From the IMG/VR virus record IMGVR_UViG_3300034108_000283, positions 51,897 to 115,896 of that record: DNA of 64,000 nucleotides, one strand, 5' to 3'. Position 1 is the stretch's first letter; each line of letters starts with the position of its first letter. This document shows, piece by piece, positions 4,379 through 52,600 of this stretch. This DNA is from a virus. Lineage: Duplodnaviria; Caudoviricetes. Made by a program: the position numbers and the translations under genes. The notes beneath the pieces are model-generated. The model saw only the letters and a program-made list of their open reading frames with translations. It ran no database searches and was not told the DNA's origin.

Positions 4379-4496
4379 TTTTTAAAATTAAAGTTGCTTA
4401 AAGCTATTGTCTGAAAGACAATTAAACACATAGTATATACTATGGCTTCACTAAAAATAATAAGGGTGTATTTCTACACCCCTATTATCCTTGAGA

Positions 4497-4901
4497 TTAT
4501 ATCCCAATTTCCTCAGATACCTCAACCTCCTCAAAGTCATCATCAGAATTCTCAGAAGCAACAACAAGGCTTGATAATGTGTACCAAGGTTTACGCGCAG
4601 TTCCATCAGCATTCTTGCTTCTAGAAACTTTACCTAAGTAGGTTTCCCCTACCTCCATACCTTGCTCATAGCTAGTACTATACACTACTATATCAGCTTT
4701 GGTGTGGCTGTTACCATTATCATCAGTAAACCTGATAGTTGCTAACTTGTAGGTTAGGGTATCCCCGTTACCATTAGTGTAAGTGAACTCTTTATCACTT
4801 AATCTAACCAAGGTAGCCTTAATGTTGGCAACCTTTTGCACATTACCACTAGGTGTTGTTTCTTCCTTAAACACCAACGCAATCTTTTTCTTTTCAATCA
4901 T
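4497..4901 (-). CDS. OB-fold-like protein with acidic tail (possible second SSB)
   Basis: Beta-strand pattern; tail SENSDDDFEEVEVSEEIGI. Confidence 0.5.
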   Translation of the reverse strand: MIEKKKIALVFKEETTPSGNVQKVANIKATLVRLSDKEFTYTNGNGDTLTYKLATIRFTDDNGNSHTKADIVVYSTSYEQGMEVGETYLGKVSRSKNADGTARKPWYTLSSLVVASENSDDDFEEVEVSEEIGI

Positions 4902-5019
4902 AACTTTTTGATTTTTGGGTTAATAATAATTTTCTTACAATAAAAGTTGCAAAAGGCTAAGCCGAAGGCTTCCAACACTATCCTTTACTTACTCTCTCTC
5001 AGCTTAAATAAAAAGGGGA

Positions 5020-5202
5020 TTACTCCCCTAATTTATTCTGTACTTGTAGATCATCTCTAAATGCTTTTAGAGTATCTATTGCTATGCTAAGTTCATATTT
5101 ATCATAGGAAATTAAATCACTATCTGTTTTTATGACTCTTTCATAAAGACTAATCTTTGCATCAAGCATTGCAATAATTCTAAATACCGGTTCTGTGTCC
5201 AT
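5020..5202 (-). CDS. Early cassette hypothetical protein
   Basis: Own promoter motif and a stop-overlapping terminator. Confidence 0.7.
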   Translation of the reverse strand: MDTEPVFRIIAMLDAKISLYERVIKTDSDLISYDKYELSIAIDTLKAFRDDLQVQNKLGE

Positions 5203-5270
5203 ATTATATAGTTTAAGATTAAATAAAAGTTGTCTTTAAAAATAGAAAGGGGAACAATGTCCCCCTATAT

Positions 5271-5657
5271 CTATGGCTTAACAGGTGCTTCCAACAACTG
5301 AAACAAATCATCTTTGTCTAACAGGTTGTGCAACTCACGCTTGTAGGTACCTAGCTCATGCAGATAACTTTGCCAAGCAGTGTAATCATTCCTTACAAGT
5401 CTAAGCTTCAGAACTGTGGCTTTAGATTCTTCATAATCTTTGGAATCCATACCTAGTTCTTTACTAGCATTAATCTGGCTATTCAACACGCCTATTGCAA
5501 AGACATATTGTTTATCAGAACTATGCATATTAATGGAAATGCTGTTGTTAACATTAATCTCAGGAATAGATGTTAATGACTCCATTAATTGAGAACACAT
5601 TTCTTTAGCAAATTCTAAATCTGCTGTTGCTTGTTTGTAAGCTTCTAACTTTTTCAT
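5271..5657 (-). CDS. Early cassette helical protein
   Basis: Own promoter motif and terminator. Confidence 0.75.
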   Translation of the reverse strand: MKKLEAYKQATADLEFAKEMCSQLMESLTSIPEINVNNSISINMHSSDKQYVFAIGVLNSQINASKELGMDSKDYEESKATVLKLRLVRNDYTAWQSYLHELGTYKRELHNLLDKDDLFQLLEAPVKP

Positions 5658-5712
5658 AGTGTATATTTTAATATTTTATTTCAATAAAAGTTGTAAAAAA
5701 ATAAAGAGAGTA

Positions 5713-5859
5713 TTACACCCTCTCTATCTTTCTTTTAACATAAAGCTTTATATAAAGCTCATCAAGTTTCTGACTATCAACCATTTGCTTCATAGCTTCT
5801 ATTGCTGACATCATAGTCTTGTACTCTTCCCAAGTTAATTCTAAGTTTACTTTGTCCAT
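5713..5859 (-). CDS. Early cassette small protein (48 aa, not in the ORF track)
   Basis: MDKVNLELTWEEYKTMM...; promoter variant at about 5878 and a hairpin at the stop. Confidence 0.65.
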   Translation of the reverse strand: MDKVNLELTWEEYKTMMSAIEAMKQMVDSQKLDELYIKLYVKRKIERV

Positions 5860-5902
5860 AGTATATAATTTAGATTATATTAAAGTTGTTAAAAAGGGGA
5901 TG

Positions 5903-6166
5903 TTACTCCCCTTTAAGATTCTTATACACATATACAGGTATGAGTGTCTTTACAATTAACCTGTGCTCTGAATTACCACTAAAAATTGCTCCATCCATTC
6001 CCGGTGGATAGAATGTGAATTTTACAGCAACATCATTAATGATACAAATACCATTAACACGTGATGTGTTTGTAAGAGCCTTGGCAATAAAAGGTTCTGC
6101 ATAAAAACAAATGCTATCAGAGCACTGTTCATTAATGCTTTCTGTAATAATAATTTCTATTTTCAT
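5903..6166 (-). CDS. Early cassette hypothetical protein
   Basis: Own promoter motif and terminator. Confidence 0.7.
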   Translation of the reverse strand: MKIEIIITESINEQCSDSICFYAEPFIAKALTNTSRVNGICIINDVAVKFTFYPPGMDGAIFSGNSEHRLIVKTLIPVYVYKNLKGE

Positions 6167-6236
6167 ATTATATAGTTTTTAATAAAATAAAAGTTGTTAT
6201 CTATAAATAAAAAGGGGGAATTTCTTCCCCCATAAA

Positions 6237-6419
6237 CTATACAACTAACAATGTATGTTCAGGGTGTATTATATGGTATTCTTCTACCAAACTATCCCTG
6301 TAAGCCTTTACCTCTTCTTCCGGTAATTGCTCAAATGCTTTTAACATAGCTTTGTCAGCTTTTTTTCCTAATAAGATTAATATCCCATCAATCTCATCAA
6401 TCATAAATTTTGTTACCAT
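6237..6419 (-). CDS. Early cassette hypothetical protein
   Basis: Own promoter motif and terminator. Confidence 0.7.
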   Translation of the reverse strand: MVTKFMIDEIDGILILLGKKADKAMLKAFEQLPEEEVKAYRDSLVEEYHIIHPEHTLLVV

Positions 6420-6467
6420 AGTGTATATATTTTTATTACAATAAAAGTTGAAATAAAAACTTAGGGA

Positions 6468-6656
6468 TTATCTCCCTAAGTCTTCTTCATACTCAAATGT
6501 TCCGGTCTCTATGTATTCATAGATCTCTGCCTTAGTAGCATAGTCTACAACTTTGCCGTCTTCAAAGAACAGTGCATACTGTTTCCGGCCATCCATAGTC
6601 TGTTGATACTTAACTTGTCCTGTAAGTAACAACCAAATAAAAATAACTTTTGTCAT
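6468..6656 (-). CDS. Early cassette hypothetical protein
   Basis: Own promoter motif; hydrophobic N-terminus. Confidence 0.7.
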   Translation of the reverse strand: MTKVIFIWLLLTGQVKYQQTMDGRKQYALFFEDGKVVDYATKAEIYEYIETGTFEYEEDLGR

Positions 6657-6701
6657 AATATATATTTCTAATGCAATAAAAGCTGTTTAAAAGAAGAAGG
6701 T

Positions 6702-6842
6702 TTATAAGCCTTCTTCTTCTTTATACTGTAGATATGATTCATATGCTGTTAAGCAATATGCATCATACTCTGCTTGTAATTCAGCACAAGAATTACAATG
6801 GTTTTCATCACCTAGTAAACAGGCACAAGTTGTATTTTCCAT
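6702..6842 (-). CDS. Early cassette Cys-rich small protein (46 aa, not in the ORF track)
   Basis: MENTTCACLLGDENHCNSC...; promoter motif at 6861. Confidence 0.65.
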   Translation of the reverse strand: MENTTCACLLGDENHCNSCAELQAEYDAYCLTAYESYLQYKEEEGL

Positions 6843-6897
6843 AATATATAATTTCTGCTACAATAGAAGTTGTTGCATCATATACAAAATAAAGGAG

Positions 6898-7098
6898 CTA
6901 TTGCTCCTCTATTTGTGTATCCCATTGTATGTCCCAAAAGTTTGCTCCAAAGTCTCCTTCTTGAAGAGAGTAAAGTAAAGAGTGAAGTTCTTTTGAAGTA
7001 AGATCAGGTCTTGTGGTTTTAATTGTTTGTTCAGGTTCTCCGGTGTCCCCTCCGCCAATGGTGATCTTGTAGCTTAAAATATAAAGTGTATTTTCCAT
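6898..7098 (-). CDS. Early cassette acidic small protein
   Basis: Own promoter motif and terminator. Confidence 0.7.
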   Translation of the reverse strand: MENTLYILSYKITIGGGDTGEPEQTIKTTRPDLTSKELHSLLYSLQEGDFGANFWDIQWDTQIEEQ

Positions 7099-7149
7099 AA
7101 TATAAGTTTAGCACACAATAGAAGTTGTCTAAATAAAAAAGAGCAAGGA

Positions 7150-7326
7150 TTATTCTCCCTGCTCTTTTACTCTACAAACATTAAACACAATGTATTCTCC
7201 CGCAGTATGTATCTCATATTTCTTGAGAATACCTTTGGTCATCCATTGATTCAATCTAGTTTGCATTTTAGTTAGTTCTCCTGCATCTGATGCAAGAAAA
7301 CTATAAAGGTCAACACGTAGTTTCAT
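7150..7326 (-). CDS. Early cassette small protein (58 aa, not in the ORF track)
   Basis: MKLRVDLYSFLASDAGEL...KEQGE*; promoter motif at 7344. Confidence 0.65.
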   Translation of the reverse strand: MKLRVDLYSFLASDAGELTKMQTRLNQWMTKGILKKYEIHTAGEYIVFNVCRVKEQGE

Positions 7327-7391
7327 ATGTATAGTTTCTGTGGCAATAAAAGCTGAAAAATAAAAAGAGAGACATTGTCTCTCTCTTAATG

Positions 7392-7592
7392 CTATGCACC
7401 TTGTAGCTTTTCTTCTATGTGCATTATTAGGTTAAGCATTCCCATAATGGAGCAACCTGCTAATATAATACCCATAGTAATTAAACCTACCATTGGTGCA
7501 GTTGGTTCTACAGATAATACTCCGAAGAAGTATAAACAGAATGTGCCAAGGCCTGAAGCATATAGCACAATAAACTTAAGTAATTGTTTCAT
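7392..7592 (-). CDS. Early cassette two-TM protein
   Basis: Start revised to MKQLLK, just after the promoter motif at 7611; two hydrophobic helices. Confidence 0.7.
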   Translation of the reverse strand: MKQLLKFIVLYASGLGTFCLYFFGVLSVEPTAPMVGLITMGIILAGCSIMGMLNLIMHIEEKLQGA

Positions 7593-7723
7593 AGTATATA
7601 ATTTCTCATACAATAAAAGCTGTCTAACACAGAAAAAAAAGGGGATATCATCCCCTGTAGTGTTTAACTTTTCATAGCTTTTAGTTTTCATACAATAAAA
7701 GCTGAATTAAAAAGTAATACAGG

Positions 7724-7906
7724 TTATTCCCCTGTATTACTTTCCATTGCTGATACAGCAGCTTCAATACCTTCTTGAACATAAGCTCTATATGCTTTTA
7801 AATCAGATAGCTCATATAGTTCTTTAAATGTCTTACCTTCTGTTTCTAAGGTAGCAATTGCTTTATCTAGCGTTTCAGCTAAATCAAATAGTTGGTTTGC
7901 AGTCAT
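7724..7906 (-). CDS. Early cassette helical protein (first gene of the array)
   Basis: Start revised to MTANQLF, just after the promoter motif at 7925. Confidence 0.7.
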   Translation of the reverse strand: MTANQLFDLAETLDKAIATLETEGKTFKELYELSDLKAYRAYVQEGIEAAVSAMESNTGE

Positions 7907-8237
7907 AGTTATTAGTTTCTCATACAATAGAAGTTGTGCTATATACTGTCTTCTCTGTGTGTGTGGTTGTGCTGTTGGCTCGGTTGTCTCAGCACCCTCC
8001 CCCCTCTGTGTCATAGTCTTCTGCTCAGCTTTTGCATCTGTTGTCTCTGCTCTGTTCTGTCTCTGCTAGCATCCACACACTTTTCCTGTGTCAGAGTTTT
8101 TTAGATTTTTTCCTAGATTCAGGCTTGCTCCCTCAGCTTCATAGGGGGTATGCCACTTTTTCTCAGAGCCCCGGGGGTTTTTGCTATATGCCCCATCTCA
8201 CACTCTTATATAGTACAACTTAATTATCTTAAAAAAA

Positions 8238-8268
8238 TTTGGTATGTTTAGAATTATGTATATATTTG
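8238..8268 (+). promoter_or_regulatory. Bacteroidota sigma70-type promoter (-33 TTTG / -7 TATATTTG)
   Basis: TTTG at 8238 and TATATTTG at 8261. The same -7 box occurs at 8354, 9451, 9547, 10862, 21826 and as TACATTTG at 47339, all intergenic. Confidence 0.7.
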
Positions 8269-8269
8269 T

Positions 8270-8335
8270 TGAGCTAATAACTTTCATTTTAGGATTAATA
8301 CTAAGAGCCCCGGAACTACAGTCTGGGGTTTTTTT
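8270..8335 (+). ncRNA. Candidate small RNA 1
   Basis: Promoter, about 35 nt with no ORF, then a GC hairpin and U-tract. Confidence 0.5.
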
Positions 8336-8365
8336 ATTATATTATATATTATATATATTTGTATT

Positions 8366-9445: not shown

Positions 9446-9460
9446 TGTTGTATATTTGTA

Positions 9461-9525
9461 CAGTTCATAACATAACTTTTAATTGATTTAGCTGAAAGCC
9501 CTGGAAATTTTTTTCTGGGGTTTTT
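9461..9525 (+). ncRNA. Candidate small RNA 2
   Basis: TATATTTG promoter at 9451, a stem-loop, then a terminator; no ORF. Confidence 0.55.
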
Positions 9526-9603
9526 AGTTTAAATTAAAATAGTTTATATATTTGTGTCACCAACAAACCATGAGAGCAATAACTCCTAATTATTTATTTG
9601 ACT

Positions 9604-9912: not shown

Positions 9913-9929
9913 TTTTTAAAACCAACAAT

Positions 9930-10874: not shown

Positions 10875-11069
10875 ATGAAAGCTATTTTAGTAATATTGCT
10901 GATAGGTGTAATTGGAGTATGTTGGATAGTTGCCAATGCTTTTAATAAACCTGTACTTAATAAAATGAAAAACTATTATGAAGATGATATAGAAGGTAGA
11001 CAGATTGCTAATGCTTTAATAGGTGTTATGATTCTGCTGTCTTTTCTTATCGGATATATTGTTGCTTAA
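10875..11069 (+). CDS. Small two-TM membrane protein
   Basis: Two hydrophobic helices; own promoter. Confidence 0.7.
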   Translation: MKAILVILLIGVIGVCWIVANAFNKPVLNKMKNYYEDDIEGRQIANALIGVMILLSFLIGYIVA

Positions 11070-11119
11070 CAACCTGTTATCTCCTTTTGCGCTAATCTTG
11101 TTAACCTGTTAAGCAACTT

Positions 11120-11149
11120 AATCCTCAGTTTTTTAACTGGGGATTTTTT
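11120..11149 (+). terminator. Intrinsic terminator
   Basis: AATCCTCAGTT...AACTGGGATT followed by a T-tract. Confidence 0.7.
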
Positions 11150-11163
11150 TATATCAAATATTT

Positions 11164-18038: not shown

Positions 18039-18111
18039 AAATACCTAGTAACCTATTGTAGTTTCAATTATTTTTAGTATATTATAAGTATATATTTATA
18101 ACATAATAACA

Positions 18112-18378
18112 ATGGCCACAGAATCACTACCAATAGCAATTTTTATAGCAAGTACCATTTTTGCTATATTTGGATACTTTTTAAAAATGATCCATGGAGA
18201 TGTCAGAAAAAATACAGAAGAACTTGGAAAGTTAAAAGGTAAAATAGAACTAGTACAACAAGAAACACAGATAAAATATCAAGCATTGCAAGAGCTTACT
18301 CAGCTTGAGATAAAAAACTTAGCAAAGAATGTAGGTGAATTATCAGATGCTGTTAAGTTGTTTATATCTAACAAATAA
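18112..18378 (+). CDS. Holin-like protein (1 TM plus coiled coil)
   Basis: N-terminal TM then coiled coil; first gene of the lysis block. Confidence 0.55.
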   Translation: MATESLPIAIFIASTIFAIFGYFLKMIHGDVRKNTEELGKLKGKIELVQQETQIKYQALQELTQLEIKNLAKNVGELSDAVKLFISNK

Positions 18379-21792: not shown

Positions 21793-21856
21793 GTTTTTAA
21801 ATATATCTAGTTTAAACTTTTATTGTATATTTGTCTAAACTTAAAATTAAAAACCA

Positions 21857-22162
21857 ATGGAAAACCAACAAGAACAAATGGAGAATCTATCTCCAGAACA
21901 GCTAGCAGCAAGAAAAGAAGAGATGAAACAATTCTTTGAAGAGGCCTTACCTTACTTAAAAGCACAAGCTGAATATGAAAAGTTATTAGCTGATATCTCT
22001 GAACTTAAGTTAAGAAGACTTCAATCAGATCATCAGTATGCAATGGCTATGTATCAGATAAACAATCCAGAACCATTAGAAGAAGATCTTGATGAAGAAG
22101 GTGTGGAATTAGAAGGTAGAGTTAATTCTGAAACAGCTAAAAGAAAGCTTAAAAAGAATTAA
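21857..22162 (+). CDS. Hypothetical coiled-coil protein
   Basis: 101-aa ORF after a host-type promoter. Confidence 0.75.
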   Translation: MENQQEQMENLSPEQLAARKEEMKQFFEEALPYLKAQAEYEKLLADISELKLRRLQSDHQYAMAMYQINNPEPLEEDLDEEGVELEGRVNSETAKRKLKKN

Positions 22163-29847: not shown

Positions 29848-29937
29848 ACTTAGCTATATAGTGCAAAAAAATATCTGAAGTCTTTTAAATTTATCAAGTT
29901 TATTTTGTATATTAAAGTATAATTAAAAACCAACAAC

Positions 29938-31203
29938 ATGGAAACAACCAACAATCCAACTGGGGAAACCCAGGTTCTTGATACTACAAAGGTAGATCAA
30001 GTAGATGTAAACATTGATGAGATCTTTGGTATGCCGGGTGCAGAAAGTGTAATGCTTCCTGAAGATGGTAAAGCTGAAGAGAAACCTAAAAATCTATTTT
30101 CTAAAGAAGAAGTAGATACTACGTTCCTTGACAACCCCAAGGCTACTCCTGAAGAAAGACAGGAAGCTAAGGAAAAGAAAGCAGAAGTTGAAGAAACAAT
30201 AGCTGAACTTGATGGCTTAATTTCTCAAGAAGAAGATGCTGGTAACAAAGGTAGACCTAAAGTAGATAAGTCAGGTCTTGCTGAGCTAGCAATTAAAATG
30301 ATTGAGGAAGGTACATTAATTCCTTTTGATGATGATAAACCATTAGAGGATTATACTACTAAAGATTTCAGAGAGTTATTTGAAGCAAACTTCCAAGAAA
30401 GAGAAAATAAAGTTAGAGAAGACACACCAAAAGAATTCTTTAACTCTCTTCCAGAAGAACTTCAAATTGCAGCCAAGTATGTTGCTGACGGAGGTACAGA
30501 TCTTAAAGGTCTGTTTAGAACATTAGCTTATGTAGAAGAAATAGTACAACTAGATCCTACAAGTGAGAATGATCAAGCAGAAATTGCAAGACAGTATTTA
30601 TACGCAACACAATTTGGTACTCCAGAAGAAATTGAATCTGAGATAGATGATTGGGCTGATATGGGTAAACTTGAGCAAAAAGCTAAACAGTTTAAACCTA
30701 AGTTAGATCGTATGCAAGATGAGATTGTAGCAAATCAACTTGCAGAACAAGAAGCTAGAAAAGAACAACAGGCTAAACAAGCTAAACAATATACAGATAA
30801 TGTATATAATACTTTAGCAACTGGTGAGATAAACGGTGTTAAGCTTGACAAAAAAATTCAGAGTATGTTATACTCAGGATTAGTTCAGCCTAACTACCCT
30901 TCAATTTCTGGTAAACAAACAAACATGCTTGGACATTTACTTGAGAAATATCAGTTTATTGAACCAAGACATGATCTTATTGCTGAGGCACTTTGGTTAC
31001 TTGCAGATCCAGATGGATATAAAAGTAAACTAAAAGACCAAGGTGGTAAAGCAGCTGTAGAAAAAACAGTAAGACAATTAAAGACAGAGGAGTCTAGGAA
31101 AATCTCTTCATCTTCTAGTACTGATGAGTATGAAGAACAAAAGAGAGGAACCGCAAAACCTCAAAGAACCATCTCAAGATCTAATATGTTCAAGAGATTT
31201 TAA
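29938..31203 (+). CDS. Putative scaffolding protein
   Basis: Acidic helical protein between portal and MCP. Confidence 0.65.
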   Translation: METTNNPTGETQVLDTTKVDQVDVNIDEIFGMPGAESVMLPEDGKAEEKPKNLFSKEEVDTTFLDNPKATPEERQEAKEKKAEVEETIAELDGLISQEEDAGNKGRPKVDKSGLAELAIKMIEEGTLIPFDDDKPLEDYTTKDFRELFEANFQERENKVREDTPKEFFNSLPEELQIAAKYVADGGTDLKGLFRTLAYVEEIVQLDPTSENDQAEIARQYLYATQFGTPEEIESEIDDWADMGKLEQKAKQFKPKLDRMQDEIVANQLAEQEARKEQQAKQAKQYTDNVYNTLATGEINGVKLDKKIQSMLYSGLVQPNYPSISGKQTNMLGHLLEKYQFIEPRHDLIAEALWLLADPDGYKSKLKDQGGKAAVEKTVRQLKTEESRKISSSSSTDEYEEQKRGTAKPQRTISRSNMFKRF

Positions 31204-31231: not shown

Positions 31232-32851
31232 ATGGCAACTCCAGTTTTAAACAATGGTATATTTCTACGGGATACCAACTACAATGCTAGTTCACACGTA
31301 GACTCTTACCACTTGGTTAACATGTTGAAGGATGCAGAACCAATGGATCTAGGTCCAGTGGACCTTTGGGCTATGGCTCAAAAGGTAGAAATGCCTCTTT
31401 ACCAAATGTCTAGCTTTGGTGGTAAAAATGTAATTATGGTTGATAACGCTCGTGGTGAGTATAAGTGGCAGACTCCAGTGTCTGTAGACTTAGCTTACAT
31501 CATTGAGGATATTGAACCAGATAACACTTTCAAAGGTGTGGATGGAACAACTTTCCGCCTTAAGTTAAGCCGCAGAGAATTTGGACATGGTGACATCATC
31601 ACATATGACAAATACAATGGAGCTGAGATGTATGTTGTACCTACAGAAGATATCCTTCCTATTGGAGATGGATACATCTATACAGTACAATTAGTAGACA
31701 ATGACAACTACAAATACTTAGACAACAAGTATTTGGCTAATGGTACTAAAGTTTTCCGTAAAGGTTCTGCCCGCGGAGAGTATGGTGAAAGATTTTCTGA
31801 CATCCAAACAAGAGCAGGATTCCGTGAATTCTACAACTTTGTTGGTGGTGCTGAAGCTCACGTTCACTATTCAATCTCTAGCCGTGCTGACTTGATGATC
31901 AAAGGTGGAATGAATGCAGATGGTACAGTTCCTGTAACTGAGATCTGGAGAACATTTGACAAAAACATTGATCCTTCAATTACATCATTAGATGATATGG
32001 TTAAGGTAATGGGTAAAGATAAAGTTAAAAAAGCATTTGACAATGGTGATTTGTCACGTACATTCTTAACTACAATGGAATCTGCTCACTTAGCTAAAGT
32101 TGCTACTGACATTGAAACTTACTTAATGTGGGGACAAGGAGGTAGAGTACGTCAAGATGGTCCAGATGATATCAGATTGTCTGTAGGTCTTTGGAAACAG
32201 TTGGATAACTCTTTCAAAAGAGTATACAACAAAAATAACTTTACACTTGATTTGTTCCGTGGAGAGATCTACAACTTCTTCAATGGTAAGGTTGAGTTCC
32301 AAGGTCCAGATCCAAAACGCTCACTAGTTGTACAAACTGGTATGGGTGGTATGCGTATGGTAAATGAAGCTATCAAAAGAGAAGCAGTATCTTCAGGTCT
32401 ATTGATTCAGGCTGCTGATATCGGTGCAATCACTGGTAAAGGTATGGACTTGAACTTTGGATTTGCATACACTTCTTATGTGATTCCTTTCTTGGCAAAT
32501 GTTAAGTTTGTATTGAACCCAGCATTTGACAATGTTCATACAAATGATATTGAGAACCCGATCATTGATGGTTTCCCATTATCTTCTTACTCATTCATTA
32601 TCTTTGATATCACTGACAATACTAATGACAACATTTTCTTGTTGAAATTGTCTTGGGATAATCAATTGAAATGGTGGTATCAAAATGGTACTATGGACTA
32701 CATGGGACGTACACAAGGATTCCAGTCTTCTGGACAATTCAATGGGTACCGTGTTATGATGTCTCAAACAATGCCAGCTATCTGGGTTAAGGATCCAACT
32801 AAAGTCCTTAAGATTGTTATGAGAAACCCAATCACTGGTGGATCATTCTAA
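31232..32851 (+). CDS. Major capsid protein (crAss-like)
   Basis: 539 aa, strongly biased codon use, follows portal/scaffold and is followed by a strong terminator. Confidence 0.88.
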   Translation: MATPVLNNGIFLRDTNYNASSHVDSYHLVNMLKDAEPMDLGPVDLWAMAQKVEMPLYQMSSFGGKNVIMVDNARGEYKWQTPVSVDLAYIIEDIEPDNTFKGVDGTTFRLKLSRREFGHGDIITYDKYNGAEMYVVPTEDILPIGDGYIYTVQLVDNDNYKYLDNKYLANGTKVFRKGSARGEYGERFSDIQTRAGFREFYNFVGGAEAHVHYSISSRADLMIKGGMNADGTVPVTEIWRTFDKNIDPSITSLDDMVKVMGKDKVKKAFDNGDLSRTFLTTMESAHLAKVATDIETYLMWGQGGRVRQDGPDDIRLSVGLWKQLDNSFKRVYNKNNFTLDLFRGEIYNFFNGKVEFQGPDPKRSLVVQTGMGGMRMVNEAIKREAVSSGLLIQAADIGAITGKGMDLNFGFAYTSYVIPFLANVKFVLNPAFDNVHTNDIENPIIDGFPLSSYSFIIFDITDNTNDNIFLLKLSWDNQLKWWYQNGTMDYMGRTQGFQSSGQFNGYRVMMSQTMPAIWVKDPTKVLKIVMRNPITGGSF

Positions 32852-32869: not shown

Positions 32870-32898
32870 AGGGAGGGGGAAACTCCTCCCTTTTTTTT
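32870..32898 (+). terminator. Intrinsic terminator after MCP
   Basis: AGGGAGG-GGGAAACT-CCTCCCT followed by a T-tract. Confidence 0.85.
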
Positions 32899-32946
32899 AA
32901 TTAAAAAAAGTATTAAATTTAACCAACAAAATAAAAACCAACAACA

Positions 32947-33963
32947 ATGGAAAATTTCACAATGGTTGAGACCGGTAAGGGCTCAGTAAGAAAAACGGCT
33001 ATTGCAGTCCGTCCGTTCTTTGACAGTAGATCTTCTAACATGGGATTAGAAGAATATGGTATGACTCTATTTGATGGAGTTACCCATACAGAGCAACTTG
33101 CTTGCTTAGAAAACAATGGTGTGACTAGGTATATCACTGGTCTTAATGAATATGCACCAGAGATAAAACTATTAGATTCTGATACAAGAGAATCTAAAGT
33201 AAAAGCAATCAGAGAAGCTGTAGCTGAACTTGAAAAAGAATTAGCTGCAAATATGCTTAATCCTGAAGACATAGATTTTTGGAATAAAGTAAAATTACTT
33301 TCTCCAAGTAACTCTGACTTCTGGAATAAAATTACATTAGCTTGTGGTAATGAACCAGTATACTTGGATCCAAAAGATCCATTTGATAGAATCAAGCTTT
33401 ATGCTATTGAAGCCGGTGGCTTTTCAATTGTAGCAAAAAGTTTTGATGATGCTAGATCAAAACCAGTACCACCAAAGTTTTATCTTGATAAAGAAGAAGA
33501 AACTGTAATGGTAAGAACTGAATACAAGAAGTTGCGTAACAAAGCACTTTCTGAACTTCAGAAATTATTTGACAAAAACAGTACTAAGTTATTCTACATT
33601 GCTAAAGTTGTAGATATCAGTAGTACACAATATAGAAAGTCTACACCAAATGATGTTATATATGAGAACATGGACTTATACATCAATGGTGAAGGTGGAG
33701 AAACCAACAAAGAAAGAGCTGCTAAATCATTTATGGAAGCAGCAAATATGGACATGGAAGCACTAAAAATTAAATCAATTGTACGTGATTCCAGTTTTTT
33801 TAAGTATATTATAAGTAAGCCAGATGGTTATTTATATCATAGTAAGTCTAGTAGCTTACTTGGTAGAAATGTATCAGATGTTATTGAGTACTTGAAGAAC
33901 CCTCTAAATGAGGATATTTTAAAAGATCTCAATGCTGCTTGTGAGAAGTATTGGAACTCTTAA
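32947..33963 (+). CDS. Conserved crAss-like protein downstream of MCP
   Basis: 338 aa; conserved position. Confidence 0.7.
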   Translation: MENFTMVETGKGSVRKTAIAVRPFFDSRSSNMGLEEYGMTLFDGVTHTEQLACLENNGVTRYITGLNEYAPEIKLLDSDTRESKVKAIREAVAELEKELAANMLNPEDIDFWNKVKLLSPSNSDFWNKITLACGNEPVYLDPKDPFDRIKLYAIEAGGFSIVAKSFDDARSKPVPPKFYLDKEEETVMVRTEYKKLRNKALSELQKLFDKNSTKLFYIAKVVDISSTQYRKSTPNDVIYENMDLYINGEGGETNKERAAKSFMEAANMDMEALKIKSIVRDSSFFKYIISKPDGYLYHSKSSSLLGRNVSDVIEYLKNPLNEDILKDLNAACEKYWNS

Positions 33964-42394: not shown

Positions 42395-42415
42395 CTAATT
42401 AAAAACCAACAACTT

Positions 42416-42613
42416 ATGGCAACTTGTGCAAATTGTGGAGCTACCCTATCATGCGGATGTCAGAAAAGAACATTAGCAAATGGTAAAAGTGGATGTGCTA
42501 ACTGTGCTAGTAAAGTAACTAAACAAGAAGTAAAACCAACTACAGTAAAACCAACTAAAACAGTTTGGGGACCTGATAGATATAAACACTTACAAAAGTT
42601 TACTAAGAAATAA
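42416..42613 (+). CDS. Small Cys-rich protein
   Basis: CxxC..x..CGC...CxxC. Confidence 0.7.
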   Translation: MATCANCGATLSCGCQKRTLANGKSGCANCASKVTKQEVKPTTVKPTKTVWGPDRYKHLQKFTKK

Positions 42614-44994: not shown

Positions 44995-45015
44995 TAATAA
45001 TTAGTATATTATAAT

Positions 45016-46554
45016 ATGAAGCCTTTAAACTTAGATAATAGACCGTGTAGCCCAATATCAAGTAACTGTGTAATATGGCAAGGTCCAGACATTCCATGTA
45101 TCAAGTTGTGTACAGGAGATACAGTATCTGATGTTATATTTAAACTTGGTACTGAGCTATGTACTATTATGGATCAGCTTAATGTAAGTAACTATGACTT
45201 ATCATGTCTTAACTTAACAGCTTGTCCTCCAGAAGATTTTCAAGCTTTAATTCAATTATTGATTACTAGGATTTGTGAACTTAATGATATTCCAGCAAGT
45301 GAAACAAAATCTTCAGGATGTCCTGATTGTGTTGTATCTGTTGCACCATGTTTAATTCAAAATGGACAAACTACTATGCAGTTAGTAGATTATGTTCAAA
45401 TGATAGCTAATAGACTTTGTGGTATTATATCTGAGATAGATAGTATTAATGATCAGATATCAACTATTAATTCTACACTAGTAGACTTACAATTTCAAAT
45501 AGATAATCTTCCTACATATACATTACCTTCATTTGAAGTAGATTGTATATTAGCAGGAAGTAACCCATTAGATGTAATTGTTCAAACATTAATGAATGAT
45601 AATACATTAGGCTACTGTGCTTTATTAGGAGCAACTGGAACACCTGCTGATATTAATGCAGCTGTATTGTCTCAATGTATTACAGATATAGATCAACCCT
45701 TAGCTGCTTTACCGGCAGTAAATACTTTTAGTGCATATTATTCAGGTTCATGGGTTAATGCTGTTTCATTAGGAGCGGCACCATCTGTTTCAAATGCTAT
45801 CAACAATATTTGGATAGCTGTTTGTGACATGTATAATTACTTGTCTAATCTTACATCTTCAACAACAGTTGTTGCGGCAGGAGAAGGTATTACAGTTACT
45901 TCAGCTACAGTCGGTACAACAACTACATATACAGTTACTAATGATTACTTAGAAACATTTGTTGCTAATTTATCTATTGATAATGATTTTGCTCCTGGTT
46001 CGGGTGTTATACCTAAAGTACTTCCTTCATCAGTTAATGGTGTTCAGGAAGGACAAGTTATTTTAAGATATACCTCTGTAGCATCAAACGGTCAGTTAGT
46101 AATTGCCGGTACAGGAACTTTTGTTCCAAATGGAAGCTTGCCTCCAATATCATTTGGAAATTTTAATAATACAACTGGATTATTTACAATTACTGATCCT
46201 GGTATGTATTTAATAAAAGCAACAATACATTTAAAACCGGATAATGGAAGTACAGTTTATTGGTCAGGAACAGGTTCAACAGTTGGCGATATAGGATCAT
46301 TTTTAATTGGAATCCATCCTAATAATAATACAGATACATTTGTTGCTAGTGGTCAAGCTTTAATTCCTAGTGTTGATAGAAATGTTGAACTATCTACATC
46401 AAAAGTAATTACAGCAACTGATCCTACAACTTTAAGAGTTAAAGTTCTTAATACAACAAATAGAGATTATGATGGTACTGTGTATACAGGTGCTGATAGT
46501 CTTTCTTTTTCTATTATAAAATTAAGAAGTGGTTTAACTATAACTAATTTATAA
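45016..46554 (+). CDS. Putative tail fibre/hub protein
   Basis: CxPISSNCV.WQG.DI.C N-terminus, coiled coil, and a C1q/TNF-like C-terminal region (GLFTITDPGMYLI). Confidence 0.65.
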   Translation: MKPLNLDNRPCSPISSNCVIWQGPDIPCIKLCTGDTVSDVIFKLGTELCTIMDQLNVSNYDLSCLNLTACPPEDFQALIQLLITRICELNDIPASETKSSGCPDCVVSVAPCLIQNGQTTMQLVDYVQMIANRLCGIISEIDSINDQISTINSTLVDLQFQIDNLPTYTLPSFEVDCILAGSNPLDVIVQTLMNDNTLGYCALLGATGTPADINAAVLSQCITDIDQPLAALPAVNTFSAYYSGSWVNAVSLGAAPSVSNAINNIWIAVCDMYNYLSNLTSSTTVVAAGEGITVTSATVGTTTTYTVTNDYLETFVANLSIDNDFAPGSGVIPKVLPSSVNGVQEGQVILRYTSVASNGQLVIAGTGTFVPNGSLPPISFGNFNNTTGLFTITDPGMYLIKATIHLKPDNGSTVYWSGTGSTVGDIGSFLIGIHPNNNTDTFVASGQALIPSVDRNVELSTSKVITATDPTTLRVKVLNTTNRDYDGTVYTGADSLSFSIIKLRSGLTITNL

Positions 46555-46556
46555 AA

Positions 46557-47264
46557 ATGGCAACAACTAATAATACATGTAAAAAATGCGGATGTCAGGA
46601 TAGCTTTATGCCAAGTCCTGCACCGTGCCCAACTCCAATAGGATGTCCTAATCCAGAACCATGTTCTGAAGTATTGGATTCTCAGTGTGTAATTTATTCA
46701 GGAAGTAATATTTTATGTAACAATAATGTATTAGTTACAACCAATGACTCTGTAGCTGAAGCTTTAGAAAGTATAATAGATTACTTTTGTGCTAATGCCC
46801 CATCTCCTGTAATATTAACATCAGCTGGTGGAGATGTATCATTAGTAAATGATGGTACTGGACCAGCATTAGCAGTAAAAGGATTAACAGCCGGATATGG
46901 TATAAATGTTTCAACAACAACAACAGCAGTTACAATATCTGCAAAATGTCCAATTCAAGTAGAAATTACAGCAGGAAGTGCAGGACGTATTCAAGCTACT
47001 GTTACAGGTGGTGTCGGTCCCTTTACTTATGACTGGAGTATGGCAGATTTAATAAATGGAGTTGCAAATTCAATGTTTACATTGACTCCTTTAGGAAATC
47101 CTGCAACAGTACTGCCAGCATTGAATCCAGCTGTAGTAAATAAATTTGATGCTTGTGGATCAGCTAATTTTGGATCTGTAGGTCTTGCTAAAGTTATTGT
47201 AACAGATTCAGAAGGATGTACAGCTAAAGATACTTATCTATTAATTAATATTGCATGCGCTTAA
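46557..47264 (+). CDS. Putative tail fibre protein
   Basis: Cys-rich N-terminus related to 45016; SprB/Ig-like C-terminus (VTGG.GPFTY.WS...VTDS.GC). Confidence 0.6.
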   Translation: MATTNNTCKKCGCQDSFMPSPAPCPTPIGCPNPEPCSEVLDSQCVIYSGSNILCNNNVLVTTNDSVAEALESIIDYFCANAPSPVILTSAGGDVSLVNDGTGPALAVKGLTAGYGINVSTTTTAVTISAKCPIQVEITAGSAGRIQATVTGGVGPFTYDWSMADLINGVANSMFTLTPLGNPATVLPALNPAVVNKFDACGSANFGSVGLAKVIVTDSEGCTAKDTYLLINIACA

Positions 47265-47267
47265 GAA

Positions 47268-47335
47268 GTTGCAGGTTTGTTGGTTTCTGTAACAACAAAG
47301 GCAAAGCCCTCACACTTGTGGGGGTTTTGTTTTTT
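47268..47335 (+). ncRNA. Stem-loop plus terminator (candidate 3'UTR-derived sRNA)
   Basis: GTTGCAG-[GTTTGTTGGTTT]-CTGTAAC, then an AAAGCCCTCAC...GTGGGGGTTTT terminator. Confidence 0.45.
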
Positions 47336-47382
47336 ACTTACATTTGTTAAAGTCATTTATTTTTAGTATATTAATATATAGT

Positions 47383-47964
47383 ATGAAGGAAATTAAAAAG
47401 CCTGATATTAAAGGACCAAGGTATAGACCTGAAGTCCACAACATAATGAACAAAGAGTTCTTTGATAGTTTTAGACAAAAGCATCCTAAGTATAAAAATC
47501 TTACTGATGCTGACTTAAAGAAAATAGGTAAAGCTTTTAATAGGCTTGTATTTCAGACAGTGATAGATACAAGAGATGGAGTTCAGTTACCGGAGTCAAT
47601 AGGTTGGTTGTTTATAGGAACCTGTGAACAAAGTAAAAAGTATAACATTGATTTTGCTAAGTCACATCAGTATGGTGTAACAGTTTCAAATAAAAACTGG
47701 GCAACAGATGGAAAGCTTGCAAAAATATTTTATACTAACTATGCTCCAAAAATTAAAATAAAGAATAAAGAATACTGGAAGTTTGTAGCATGCCGAGAAT
47801 TTAAAAGAAGTGTTGCTAAAGTATATCCGGAAAACTGGAACATGTATGTAGCAGTTGACCCAACTGAAAAAATAAGAAAGACATACCAAAAGTTTAAAAC
47901 TAGACAAATTGCTCTAAAGCTTCAAAGCAAAGCATTAGAAACATATAATGAATTTGATTTATGA
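47383..47964 (+). CDS. IHF-like crAss conserved protein
   Basis: GVQLPESIGWLFI motif; position upstream of the ring and muzzle genes; start revised to MKEIKK. Confidence 0.6.
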   Translation: MKEIKKPDIKGPRYRPEVHNIMNKEFFDSFRQKHPKYKNLTDADLKKIGKAFNRLVFQTVIDTRDGVQLPESIGWLFIGTCEQSKKYNIDFAKSHQYGVTVSNKNWATDGKLAKIFYTNYAPKIKIKNKEYWKFVACREFKRSVAKVYPENWNMYVAVDPTEKIRKTYQKFKTRQIALKLQSKALETYNEFDL

Positions 47965-48623
47965 CAACAATAGGTGAAGCAATATCAAGAGTAAGAAATA
48001 CACTAAAGGCTGTTAAGGAAGATCCTTTCTTAACTGACAGAACTATTTATTTCTCACTTCAAAAATATGCACAGACTCTAATCAAAAGAGAAGATAACCA
48101 ATTCCGGTTAATGAAGATGAGTCAGATATTTAAAGTGCTTCCTTATGTAGAACTTATTGATGTTGACAAAATAGAAGCAGGATGTATAGGTGTTTATTCA
48201 GAATGTTATTTTAAGAGATCAAAAGATAAACTCCCAAATATACTTAACGGTATGTTTGGTCCTATTATCCGTACAGTATCTTCTATAGATGGATCTATAG
48301 AAATGTTTAGAACAGATCCTGGTACTTGGATATCAATTACTAAGTCTACTACATTTAAATATAACAAGAGACCATACTTCTGGTATCTTAATGGATATCT
48401 TTATGCACCTAATATAGATTGGGACGCTGTAAGAATAGAAGCAATTTTTGATGGAGTGTTAGAAACATGTGATACTGACCCATGTCTAATTAGACAAGAT
48501 GATCCTTTTGTTTTACCAGAGTATTTATTTTCTGAAGTAGAACAGTTTGTAGTAAAAGAATTAACCATGGCTATGTCAGTTCCAACTGATGGACCGGATG
48601 ATAGCCAAAATGCTCTTAGATAA
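47961..48623 (+). CDS. Tail ring (tubular) protein
   Basis: 220 aa; YFWYLNGYLY; crAss-like synteny. Confidence 0.65.
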   Translation: MTTIGEAISRVRNTLKAVKEDPFLTDRTIYFSLQKYAQTLIKREDNQFRLMKMSQIFKVLPYVELIDVDKIEAGCIGVYSECYFKRSKDKLPNILNGMFGPIIRTVSSIDGSIEMFRTDPGTWISITKSTTFKYNKRPYFWYLNGYLYAPNIDWDAVRIEAIFDGVLETCDTDPCLIRQDDPFVLPEYLFSEVEQFVVKELTMAMSVPTDGPDDSQNALR

Positions 48624-49660
48624 TGGATTTTAATTACACCCTCCGCTATAGAACATTTGATCAGTTGTTAGAAGATGTAACAATTGACTTAAATACATTT
48701 GCTCTAGAAAATATGATTGAGCCTCAGCAGTTAATTAAGCTTGCTAAAAAAATCAACTATGACTTAGGTCTAAGAATAAATCAAACTAGAGAAGTTATAC
48801 TAGATGTTTGTCATGGTAAAGTAAAGCTACCTGATAATTTTTACACACTTAACTATGCAATGATTTGCGGTGACTATGTCAAAGCTGTAGGTTATCCAAC
48901 TGGAGGTACTAACATTCAAGAAGTACCTTATACAGAAGTTCCAAGTACAGTAAATACATGTGCTCCAATTACTGTAAACTGCCGAACATGTAATTCAAAT
49001 CCTTGCAACCAAACTGCAGCATGTGATCTTAATCATCCTATAGTAGATCCTATACCTACAGCATATGATCCAAACAATCCTTATGGTGATACATGTATTC
49101 CACCAAGAGTATTTATGAATTGCAAAGGAGAAAAATGGGAACTAGTTCAGTATATAGGTACTACAAACTATAACATTTATAAATCAGTAAGACCATTAAG
49201 ATTATCTCAAAGTAGAGAAATAGATTGTGAGTGTCCTAATCTTTACTATAATAGTCCGGATTCTGGATATATTAAAAACAATTACTTGTTTACTTCATTT
49301 GAAGATGGTAAAGTATATCTTAATTATCAAGGTACAATGGAAGATGAGCAAGGTCAGTTATTGGTTCCTGATCATGATTTTCTTAATGAGTATTATGAAT
49401 ATGCTTTTAAACAAAGAATACTTGAAAACTTATTTCTTAATGGGGAAGATGTTGCTCAAAGAATGCAATTAATTGAACAAAGATTAAAGGCAGCAAGAAA
49501 CAATGCACTTACTGTAGTTAATACTCCAAACTTTAAAGAGATGGAAAAACTTTGGTGGACTAATAGAAGAGCTCAGTACTTTAAGTATTATGATATGTTT
49601 AAATCATATCAAGGTTATAATGGTTATTACGGTAATTTTGGACGCAATAGAGTAGTTTAA
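48623..49660 (+). CDS. Tail ring (tubular) protein with Cys-rich insertion
   Basis: YLFTSFEDGKVYLNY...DE.G.LLVPD; crAss-like synteny. Confidence 0.65.
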   Translation: MDFNYTLRYRTFDQLLEDVTIDLNTFALENMIEPQQLIKLAKKINYDLGLRINQTREVILDVCHGKVKLPDNFYTLNYAMICGDYVKAVGYPTGGTNIQEVPYTEVPSTVNTCAPITVNCRTCNSNPCNQTAACDLNHPIVDPIPTAYDPNNPYGDTCIPPRVFMNCKGEKWELVQYIGTTNYNIYKSVRPLRLSQSREIDCECPNLYYNSPDSGYIKNNYLFTSFEDGKVYLNYQGTMEDEQGQLLVPDHDFLNEYYEYAFKQRILENLFLNGEDVAQRMQLIEQRLKAARNNALTVVNTPNFKEMEKLWWTNRRAQYFKYYDMFKSYQGYNGYYGNFGRNRVV

Positions 49661-49662
49661 TA

Positions 49663-52600
49663 ATGGCAAAAGAAATGCAAAATAGTGCTCAGATAATAAA
49701 CCGTAGTTTTACAAAAGGTCTTAACAAAGATGCAGATCCATCCTTTGTTCAAGAAGGTATGTGGACTCATGCCCGCAATGTTGTAAATAATACAGAAGAA
49801 GGTAACTTAGGTACATTATCAAATGAAGATGCAAATACATTATGTATTACAGCAGGAGCAACTATGCCGGCTAATGCATTAAAGAAATATATTATAGGAG
49901 CTATACAATTGTTTTCAGACAAATGGATAATCTACACAGCTGGTCATAATTCTAAAGGAATTTCTGTTAGTTCTGAGATAGGTTTATTTGAAGCTGATAC
50001 TTGTACATATAGACCTATAGTTCAAGATGCTTGTTTAAATTTTGATAAGAGATATCTTATATCTGGATCAGCTAGAGAAAAAGAAGATTGTACTTGGCAA
50101 GTATATTGGGCTGATGGAAATAATCCAGATAGATTTTTAAATGTAGGTGATCCACAAACATGGCCAAAACCACCACTTGTATGGGCAGGTCAAGCTAATA
50201 TAAATTATTATGTAGATGGCACAAGTCAAGTTCTTTGGCCTGGAGTTGCATGGAAAGAAAAAGAAAGAGTTGTTAATGAGTGTGTGTTTGTAAGTTATTT
50301 ACCTAATCTAAATTGTGATAAAATTAGATTAGCAAGGTTAATGGAAACACCTTGTCTTAAAGTTACTCTTGGTAATCAAGGAGGTACATTAAGAAATGGA
50401 ACATACTTTGCAACTATAGCATATAGTATAAAAGGACAAAGGGTAACAGATTACTTTTCACAAAGTAATAATCAACCTATTTGGTTCCCAAATGATTTGC
50501 AAGGATCACTTATTATAGATGTAGAAGCAGACAGTGTAAACTTTGATGAATTTATATTAGTAGTAGTACAGAATATAAACCAAGGAACTGTTGCTAAACA
50601 GATTGGTACTTATTCTACTAGAACTACTAGAATTGCATTAGATCAAATTAAAGAAGATCTTATATCAGTTCCCTTACAGTTTTTACCTTTACAGACTCCT
50701 GTATTTGAAAAATCAGATCAGATTGCAGATGTAAATAATTACTTGCTTAGAGTAGGACCTACATCTAAGTTTGATTTTAACTATCAACCATTAGCTAATC
50801 TTATTCAAGCTAAGTGGGCTTCAGTAGAATACCCAGCTGAGTATTATGTTAAAGGTGGTAATAAGGGTAGTTACTTAAGAGATGAGGTATACTGTTTCTT
50901 TATCCGGTGGGTATATGATACAGGAGATAAATCTGCATCATATCATATTCCTGGCAGAGCTCCAAGAAAGTATCCAAACCCTAACAGTCCTACATATGAA
51001 TACTCAGATGATAATGGGATAAATTCATTAACAGCTGATGATAAAATATTTGAAGTATATAATACATCTACCGTTGATCCTATAATTGGTAATCCTGTTG
51101 TAGGTACAATAACAGATGATGGCGGACAAGTTATTGCTGTAGGGGATATGGCTTATTGGCAATCAACTGAAACATATCCAGATGATAGACCTGATATATA
51201 TAATGCAAGTTATCATTGTTGGACAGGTGTATTTAATAATCCAAATCTATCTTGGGATTTATGCGGTACTGCAATAAGACATCATAAGTTTCCGGATAAC
51301 ATGACGGATACTTCACCTAATGCTGTAACTAATCACTTCAAACCAAATCCTCCATATACCCCTAATCCTTTAAAAATAAGATTAATGGGTCTATACTTTG
51401 AAAACATAACTTATCCAAAAGATAATGAAGGTAATGATATACCGGGAATAGTAGGTTATGAAATCTTAAGAGGGTCAAGAGAAGGCAACAGATCTATTAT
51501 TGCAAAAGGTATGTTAAATAACTTTAGAACATATCAAATAAGAGGACAAGTTGTAAATAATGCAGCACCTACAGTTGGACTGTATGCAAACTATCCTTTT
51601 AACACAATCAATGGGTTTTATAATACAGGAACTGGTAATGATCACAATAGACCTTTTATGGATCCATTTATTAGAATCAATGATCCTAATATTACTAATC
51701 CAAAGTATAATGATAATGTAGAAGATCAAAGAGTACCTAGAGATATTGTATCTTTTCATTCACCAGATACAATGTTTAATACTCCTTTCTTATCTACAAC
51801 TGAGTTAAAGCTTTATGGATACTTAAGAGGTACAAGTAATCAGAAGTTTATTGAACCAAATAAACATCCACAGTTTAAACTTATAAGTGACTTGTGTTTG
51901 TACCCAATGTTTCTTACAGGTTTAATAGAAGCTATAATATCATTTAGAGGTAAGATAGACATTACTTCTGCTGAGTTTACTACTCCAGGTTTAGGAGGAG
52001 ATGCTTCTTTTGCTGCTCAGGTAGGTTTTGCGGCAGCAGCTCAAAGTGCATATACAGTATTACCATATACAGTACTTACTCCATTTCCTGTACCTGCATT
52101 AGGTTATAATAATGCTTTAACAACATATTTTACAACAGGTGGTGCTTTATTTGATGCTTTGAGTATGGCATTTACAGGAACTACTCCTAGTTTAAATGCT
52201 CTTGATACAGCATTAGAAACATACATGCTACCATCAATAGTTGGAGGAGGAGTTGCTACTTCAGGAAGTAGGTATAGTTATACACTTCCAGATTGGGCAT
52301 ATCTAGATCCTATCAGTAGAGCATTAGGGGCTACTAATCAATTATTGTTTTATTTTAGTGAAGGAGCAAGAGCAACACAAGCTCTCTTATTAGCTATTAT
52401 CCCTTATGAACAATTTGCTTTACAAATGATTGCTCATGGTCTTTATGATGACATGAGACCTAATAACTCAGCAAATGGTTTGTATAGATTTAAAATTGAT
52501 GATAGAACTTATATAAGAGGTAACATACAACAACTACCGTCTTATTATCAATATGGAGCTGGTGGTGCAGGAACAGGTGCTCCACAAAGTTATAGTATAA

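Follow-up and report, generated by a model that had tools for sequence, protein, structure and literature searches.

CpxQ, SroC and DapZ are enterobacterial small RNAs (sRNAs) that derive from 3' untranslated regions (UTRs), act by base pairing and share the terminator of their parental mRNA. Among phages, the c4 RNA of P1 and P7 and the CI RNA of P4 are antisense regulators of immunity and lysogeny genes within one operon. Pairing within a single message is known from icaR of Staphylococcus aureus, in which the 3' UTR binds the ribosome-binding region of the same mRNA, and GibS, MasB and FopS are trans-acting sRNAs of Bacteroides, encoded by the host and transcribed from their own promoters. 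To our knowledge, the regulatory RNAs of lytic phages are little known, with almost nothing described for crAss-like phages or other phages of aquatic bacteria; at the level of listings and abstracts, the literature on small RNAs or antisense regulation in crAss-like phages offered nothing relevant. Here we describe a hairpin directly downstream of a phage gene, the loop of which is complementary to a short box found in front of several start codons. The reading that we favor, with a probability of roughly 55%, is that the hairpin belongs to a 3' UTR RNA and that its loop would pair with these leaders to control their translation.

The stretch of DNA analyzed here (64,000 nt; hereafter the window) is the final 64 kb of a 115,896-bp phage genome with 33% G+C. 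Its capsid gene (31232-32851) matched a major head protein family in PHROG (E = 2e-30), and tblastn searches revealed 27% identity over 99% of the length to the capsid of Leptolyngbya phage Lbo-JY46 as well as partial matches of 22-27% to several uncultured crAss-like phage capsids, which would make the phage distantly crAss-like by this gene. Cultured phages were reached by the capsid protein only; no match to them was obtained by blastn with positions 45000-49000 or by tblastn with the 193-aa protein encoded downstream of the hairpin. A search of sequencing runs found the stretch in 20 DNA runs, from lake-water metagenomes, and in no RNA runs. A Bacteroidota host is hinted at. No tRNA or tmRNA gene was found in the window. 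Three giant plus-strand open reading frames (ORFs; 1849, 1155 and 1024 aa) follow the hairpin within the window, and four further plus-strand ORFs (1030, 2351, 4207 and 1164 aa) at genome positions 296-26557, outside the window (L110, L111), continue the string of genes that begins after the hairpin; this giant-protein block recalls crAss-like phages.

The hairpin lies on the plus strand at 47268-47293 and starts 3 nt past the TAA stop codon (47262-47264) of the gene that carries it in its 3' UTR. It consists of a 7-bp stem (GTTGCAG, 47268-47274; CTGTAAC, 47287-47293) and a 12-nt loop, GTTTGTTGGTTT (47275-47286), which is the reverse complement of the leader box AAACCAACAA(AC). Just after it, at 47297-47335 on the plus strand, stands an intrinsic terminator (A-tract, GCCCTCAC/ACTT/GTGGGGGT, U-tract), at which the hairpin RNA would end. 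The two elements are separate: the terminator shows the G+C-rich stem-loop and U-tract of a Rho-independent terminator, whereas the hairpin is A/U-rich and has no U-tract. RNAfold analysis of 47255-47345 returned precisely these two hairpins (-31.2 kcal/mol, z = -4.31, with 0 of 200 shuffled sequences as stable) and added a G-U closing pair to the first, leaving a 10-nt loop. Sequence and fold thus confirmed the stem, the loop and the adjacent terminator of the original prediction. That prediction had also raised an alternative pairing that could hide the loop (TTTGTTG, 47276-47282, with CAACAAA, 47293-47299); it is present in this genome but was kept in just 7 of 57 distinct relatives, and it was rejected. 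Searching the genome with a covariance model (R1) revealed a single strong copy (47264-47339, 92 bits) and two weak ones (20 and 18 bits). No Rfam family reached its gathering score in the window, and loose matches to Leu_leader, the rnk leader, MicC and others, which fell far below their cut-offs and covered the terminator, were discarded.

The gene upstream of the hairpin (46557-47264, plus strand, 235 aa) encodes a protein with a Cys-rich N-terminus, common to many relatives, and an Ig-like C-terminus with a weak match to a Hoc-like PHROG family (E = 5e-5); a match to the SprB repeat (27.1 bits) fell just below the Pfam cut-off of 28. Only 29 loci related to this gene were found. Different relatives carry different genes in this slot, as would suit a module for host recognition or decoration, and because the gene varies there is no conserved promoter belonging to the hairpin itself. 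Together with the 3' UTR position, this fits an RNA derived from a 3' UTR. The conserved gene downstream (47383-47964, plus strand, 193 aa) belongs to no family and is preceded by a promoter-like block and 5' UTR (47339-47382, plus strand) containing TACATTTG (47339-47346) and TAGTATATTA (47364-47373); such upstream blocks were described by reference to TAnnTTTG, the Bacteroidota promoter motif. The promoter function of this block is putative. Exact plus-strand copies of TAGTATATTA at 18075, 40190, 45002 and 47364 stand 3-35 nt before plus-strand genes at 18112, 40234, 45016 and 47383, and this sequence may be a late promoter element; with one mismatch allowed it was not enriched (21 versus 22 expected).

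Relatives were collected by searching IMG/VR with the 193-aa protein, which identified 101 loci, of which the best 80 (58-83% identity) were kept. The hairpin, the terminator and the promoter-like block preceded the 193-aa homologue in all 80 of these upstream regions. As in sRNAs derived from 3' UTRs, the element sits in a 3' UTR and ends at the intrinsic terminator of the parental gene, an arrangement common to all 80 relatives. A regular expression caught 77 of the loci, with L081, L082 and L107 confirmed by eye and by the model, and R1 gave one strong match per locus. Analysis of the 58 distinct rows revealed that 97.4% of cells were paired, compared with 94.2% in shuffled alignments, and that 7 pairs changed on both sides, compared with 3.0; none of 500 shuffles reached the alignment on any of five measures, and in slid controls pairing fell to 46-58%. 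Helix 1, the hairpin, was 97% paired over these relatives with compensatory changes, and helix 2, the terminator, had 97.6% of cells paired and 5 pairs with changes on both sides. At three positions of helix 1, G-U or U-G pairs occurred in 30, 24 and 22 of the 58 rows; these would be mismatches on the opposite strand, so the fold belongs to the plus strand, which is the transcribed one. The loop contained TTGTTGG in 57 of the 58 rows.

A more distant set of 282 loci was obtained with an alignment (A4) of the 220-aa virion protein encoded two genes downstream and its Lbo-JY46 homologue. R1 matched on the gene strand in 72 of the best 80 of these loci. Among the 37 lower-scoring of the 72, for which loops and stems were compared, the stems were unrelated in sequence (GTCGCAG/CTGTGGC, GTAGTGG/CTACTAC, GTCAGG/CCTGAC, AGAGGG/CCCTCT and others), yet TTGTTGGTT was found in the loop of 32 and TTGGTT in the loop of all 37. 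The loop variants were TTTATTGGTTTT (L263, L275), TTGGTTGGTTT (L238, L264) and TTTTGTTTGGTTTTT (L240). What the relatives conserve of the hairpin is its structure together with the loop, and not its plain sequence.

The exact complement of the loop, AAACCAACAA, is the most over-represented 10-mer of the window, with 7 matches, 6 on the plus strand and 1 on the minus strand (the hairpin loop), compared with a both-strand mean of 0.29 and a maximum of 2 in 100 shuffles. Four plus-strand copies stand 1-3 nt before ATG codons: at 9919-9928, 1 nt before the ATG at 9930 of a 94-aa ORF; at 29927-29936, 1 nt before the ATG at 29938 of a 421-aa ORF just upstream of the capsid gene; at 32935-32944, 2 nt before the ATG at 32947 of the 338-aa gene that follows the capsid gene (hereafter the post-capsid gene); and at 42403-42412, 3 nt before the ATG at 42416 of a 65-aa Cys-rich gene, within a spacer of ~20 nt inside an operon. 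The post-capsid leader carries a double box (32921-32944, plus strand), the distal copy being AACCAACAA (32921-32929). The original prediction had listed all four of these leaders together with partial copies at 32921, 9559 and 21851, and every one was found. Of the partial copies, ACCAACAAAC (9559-9568, plus strand) follows a TATATTTG motif and is separated by 1 nt from the ATG at 9570 of an ORF of only 24 codons, and AAACCAATG lies at the start of a plus-strand ORF at 21857, where it is joined (21851-21871) by a full box in codons 2-5 (21862-21871). This full box and another at 33701, also in coding sequence, are the remaining two plus-strand copies and were absent from the earlier list. Genome-wide, one further start-linked copy was found, AAAACCAACAG-ATG, at a minus-strand gene outside the window.

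The enrichment of the box at starts, for which the original prediction had proposed a genome-wide count, was measured over 134 starts from a crude ORF call of the whole 115,896-bp genome. AAACCAACA occurred between -22 and +2 at 5 of the 134 starts compared with 0.08 expected (binomial P = 3e-8), and AAACCAA at 6 of 134 compared with 0.51 expected (P = 1.6e-5). The capsid gene itself has no leader box, which counts against the pairing reading. No Pfam or PHROG family was assigned to the box-bearing genes, the 65-aa protein having a sub-threshold zinc-finger match. A conserved TTGTAC..TTGTTAA before the 42403 box was considered as a promoter and rejected because it is where the coding sequence of the preceding gene ends (..C-x-N-C-stop). 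Among the matches listed in searches of full-text literature for the loop and box strings, only primers and siRNAs were found.

A 15-nt identity to the loop plus the 3' arm of the hairpin (TTGTTGGTTTCTGTA) was observed at genome positions 51169-51183 (L112), 727 nt before the window. This stretch is antisense and falls within a minus-strand gene of 134 aa, in which it specifies the residues Q-K-P-T-N of a variable linker; CAGAAACCAA of this site was kept in 4 of the 6 genomes compared, and the site may be an internal target or a chance match. Three short units were also observed in the window, at 8255-8337, 9447-9527 and 11055-11150. Each combines a motif resembling TATATTTG (in the third, TATATTGTTG) with a non-coding stretch of ~50-70 nt and a terminator made up of a hairpin and a U-tract. 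With a putative promoter and a terminator each, these units look like stand-alone small RNA genes; they are those (at 8270, 9461 and 11061) that the original prediction had grouped with the hairpin as a putative phage-encoded set of anti-initiation sRNAs. On the minus strand of 4385-7936, CA[AG]CTT[TC]TATTG occurred 13 times at up to 1 mismatch, each copy preceding a small ORF on that strand, with (A)TATATAnT-ATG after it; across the whole window it occurred 33 times at up to 2 mismatches compared with 18 expected, a count reached in 0 of 100 shuffles, making it a candidate early-promoter array.

To follow the boxes through relatives, homologues of the post-capsid gene were collected and the best 80 of 238 kept. 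AAACCAACA was present in the leaders of all 80, with the proximal AACCAAC ending 0-7 nt before the ATG, and a second box was present in 62; the terminator between the capsid gene and the post-capsid box varied freely among the same 80 homologous loci. Of the 80 close loci, 53 yielded the small Cys-rich gene, and all 53 of its leaders contained AACCAA, located in a spacer of ~12-20 nt past the stop codon of the preceding gene in the same operon; the two bases that followed were CA in 29, TA in 14, CT in 7 and others in 3. Orthologous leaders thus keep their boxes within spacers that otherwise vary. Across diverse genomes the post-capsid gene was found in 22 of 30, each of the 22 leaders containing AACCAA, and the leaders of diverse clades diverged beyond AAACCAA. 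The small Cys-rich gene was identified in 5 of 17 distant genomes (G005, G007, G015, G020 and G028) when the 7 kb preceding the hairpin were searched. The post-capsid gene of a sister clade (G049-G054) is extended at the N-terminus, and its leader was extracted only in G049. In one record of this clade, G052 (the record behind L341; 245,646 bp), the post-capsid gene occurs twice, at ~27.6 and ~154.9 kb; this record may be a concatemer or a chimeric assembly.

Counts in four near-complete relatives revealed 3-7 copies of AAACCAACA on the late-gene strand and 1-4 off it, including the hairpin, compared with 0-3 copies of reversed-pattern controls. In every leader the box is sense, and the antisense form sits in the hairpin. 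As in 3' UTR-derived sRNAs, a conserved seed is complementary to conserved sites in start regions. Loss of the loop in relatives that keep the leader had been set beforehand as the observation that would speak against the prediction; loop and box were both kept across the phage group.

We also examined whether loop and box change together, as the original prediction had suggested they might, and found joint change in two lineages. In the G-loop family the base facing the central loop G was C in 80 of 80 post-capsid leaders, and in the 53 small-gene leaders it was C in 36, T in 15 and A in 2. In the clade around L263 the central G is replaced by A, the loop reading UUAUUGG; among 17 boxes in 11 genomes of this clade the facing base was T in 10, A in 7 and C in none. 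AACCAATAA is the sequence of both post-capsid boxes in G007 and in G008 and also of the small-gene box in G007, and all AACCAACAA copies in G007 lie inside genes. That G tolerates C or U and A takes only U is a pattern of RNA pairing (G-C, G-U, A-U). A separate case was observed in G005, in which the loop UUGGUUGG and the small-gene leader AAACCAACCA form a perfect 10-nt complement (the compensated leader reads AACCAACCA); one of three leaders is compensated in this genome and the two others keep AACCAACAA. The small-gene leader AAAGCCAACAAA of G020 retains pairing through G-U. The covariation of loop and box represents one or two evolutionary events, the G-to-A change probably being a single event, and the 7 A-bearing boxes among the 17 of the A-loop clade are mismatches. 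Natural variation bearing on a putative seed dependence of the targets consists of the A-loop clade, with no C-type box among 17, and of one compensating leader in G005, within one or two events and alongside some mismatches.

According to the pairing reading, the hairpin would be part of a plus-strand RNA made as the 3' end of a late mRNA stopping at 47297-47335, and it would either remain on that mRNA or be processed to a fragment of ~70 nt. The single-stranded loop of the hairpin, UUUGUUGGUUU, would base-pair with the box AAACCAA(CAA) located 0-7 nt before start codons, the targets being the genes at 9930, 29938, 32947 and 42416, probably that at 21857, and one gene on the minus strand outside the window. 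Such pairing would occlude the ribosome landing site and would most likely lower translation of genes that lie mostly in the head region, with the lowering setting in as late transcripts accumulate; the box lies within the ribosome landing zone, so repression is the default expectation. We infer the accumulation of the RNA, its binding to leaders and the sign of the effect. The original prediction of a 3' UTR-derived regulator of a leader-defined regulon is partly supported: it stands as regards the 3' UTR site and a loop and box that are kept and covary, and its regulatory part is putative.

Several features weigh against this reading, among them the mismatching boxes, the small number of covariation events and the cultured distant relative Lbo-JY46, in which the hairpin-like element described below is present and the boxes are absent. 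Predicted energies of the leader duplexes range from -11.4 to -11.7 kcal/mol and are equalled or bettered at more than 15 other sites, mostly intragenic; an energy-based target scan, in which 1 of the top 15 sites was near a start, failed as proof of leader specificity. In distant clades the post-capsid leader matches the loop over the 7-nt core AAACCAA only, yet the 5' half of the loop (UUUGU) is conserved; no partner for this half was evident in these clades, and another constraint may act on the loop. The geometry is also strained, as a 10-bp helix within a 12-nt loop on a 7-bp stem would need partial opening of the stem (the hairpin alone was predicted at -6.8 kcal/mol).

The same pairing could act in cis, with loop and box on one long late mRNA. 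As in mRNAs whose own 3' and 5' UTRs pair, the 3' UTR would then be joined to an internal start region and would tune the gene concerned or the stability of the mRNA, without a free small RNA. The 42403 leader lies 4.9 kb upstream of the hairpin with its box in an intra-operon spacer, the 42416 gene and the hairpin belong to one uninterrupted plus-strand gene string with no terminator noticed by inspection between them, and both compensated small-gene leaders (G005, G007) come from the string of this gene. Most boxes, however, are separated from the hairpin by 14-37 kb and by further terminators (such as that of the capsid gene at ~32870-32900), and one is on the opposite strand block; for boxes that are distant and separated by terminators or on the opposite strand, a transcript shared with the hairpin is impossible. 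We consider an explanation by cis action unlikely.

The loop could instead be bound by a protein or by the ribosome, acting for example as a decoy copy of whatever binds the box, the box being a private translation-start signal; the two would then compete without any leader pairing. The box does resemble a ribosome-binding signal in its fixed distance from the ATG and its intra-operon position, and the whole 11-nt loop is conserved even where leaders share 7 nt. Analysis of Leptolyngbya phage Lbo-JY46 (PP438436.1; L203-L205), a cultured cyanophage with the capsid and virion genes common to the group, is consistent with such a role. The 220-aa virion protein is 30% identical to its Lbo-JY46 counterpart, and in the 410-nt spacer upstream of this homologous gene a syntenic hairpin-like element was found (91576-91643; R1 28.3 bits, E = 1e-4), reading ATATAAA-TTTGTTGGTTG-TTTATAT followed by a terminator. 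The loop is conserved in this phage, and no leader box was found at any annotated start: 0 of 11 ACCAACAA copies are in leaders, and the post-capsid leader reads AAACAACAACAAAA. A search with the 221-aa protein of this phage found no close relatives of Lbo-JY46 in the viral collection, and we found no paper naming this phage in the literature listings. The Lbo-JY46 record lists ~20 tRNA genes, compared with none in the window. Against competition of this kind, the complementarity of loop and box calls for an RNA partner with the sequence of the loop, of which none is known, and the asymmetric covariation is more simply explained by direct pairing. A decoy role also appears unlikely to us, and direct pairing of loop and leader remains the preferred explanation.

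A further alternative is that a phage regulator binds AAACCAACAA/TTGTTGGTTT as double-stranded DNA, in either orientation, the hairpin copy being one more such site. A protein of altered specificity would likewise change all sites in concert, including the inverted one. The boxes, however, hug start codons and not promoters, one of them in an intra-operon spacer of ~20 nt, and their orientation is strictly sense in all leaders. Neither the promoter placement, nor the free orientation, nor the conserved arms of a DNA operator were observed; the inverted copy lies in the loop of a covarying stem rich in G-U, which is sensible only for RNA, and the arms around it covary. The asymmetry between G and A would also be unexpected, and we consider the DNA-site explanation improbable. 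That the hairpin merely stabilizes the mRNA 3' end or assists the terminator, its leader match being coincidental, is very improbable, since despite its position directly before the terminator and the many equally good pairing sites predicted by chance, such a role has no need of an invariant 11-nt loop, which is kept where proteins are 25-30% identical, and chance fails to explain why that loop complements the most enriched, start-linked and conserved 10-mer.

A broader but more tentative proposal can also be made: a large aquatic group of phages, uncultured and distantly crAss-like, might possess a private translation-control circuit, in which a phage-specific box replaces the Shine-Dalgarno sequence ahead of selected virion-region genes and the invariant loop of a single 3' UTR hairpin RNA serves as its "anti-box". 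If true, head-assembly proteins would be timed or dosed independently of host factors, and the hairpin would represent a new RNA family with covariation in trans, extending across phages whose structural proteins are only 25-30% identical. Consisting of one loop and several boxes, the circuit is compact and testable, and natural compensatory variants (G-loops with C or U boxes, A-loops with U boxes) could be used as controls in binding and reporter assays. Should the box also be a phage-specific ribosome landing signal, it would bear on initiation in hosts that do not rely on Shine-Dalgarno sequences, and the covariance model could be used to mark this phage group in metagenomes.

Comparison with the described systems places the hairpin apart from each of them in some respects. 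Like the icaR 3' UTR, it offers a 3' UTR motif complementary to a translation start region, with blocked initiation as the expected outcome; icaR involves one mRNA and a Shine-Dalgarno target, whereas the putative targets here are several, lie for the most part on other transcripts and carry a box unlike a Shine-Dalgarno sequence. GibS, MasB and FopS similarly use a seed for A-rich start regions that lack a Shine-Dalgarno sequence, a likeness that is relevant if the host belongs to the Bacteroidota, as is only hinted; they have no sequence relation to the hairpin. The c4 and CI RNAs carry loops that pair with short repeated boxes and block expression, and the loop described here is likewise complementary to boxes before phage genes. 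Those RNAs use two loop segments and two adjacent boxes in one operon; in contrast, this hairpin has a single loop, and its boxes (9919, 29927, 32921/32935 and 42403) are dispersed over more than 30 kb, standing before virion-region genes in a window with no sign of lysogeny. Searches for a sequence-structure match to P1 c4 or P4 CI RNA returned none, loose thresholds giving only sub-threshold, terminator-driven matches. In comparison with CpxQ, SroC and DapZ, the hairpin is encoded by a phage, is known from sequence alone and bears its seed in a hairpin loop and not in a 5' single strand. Like these sRNAs, it lies directly past a stop codon, lacks a conserved promoter, displays a conserved seed in single-stranded form ahead of an intrinsic terminator, and has several dispersed putative targets in start regions.
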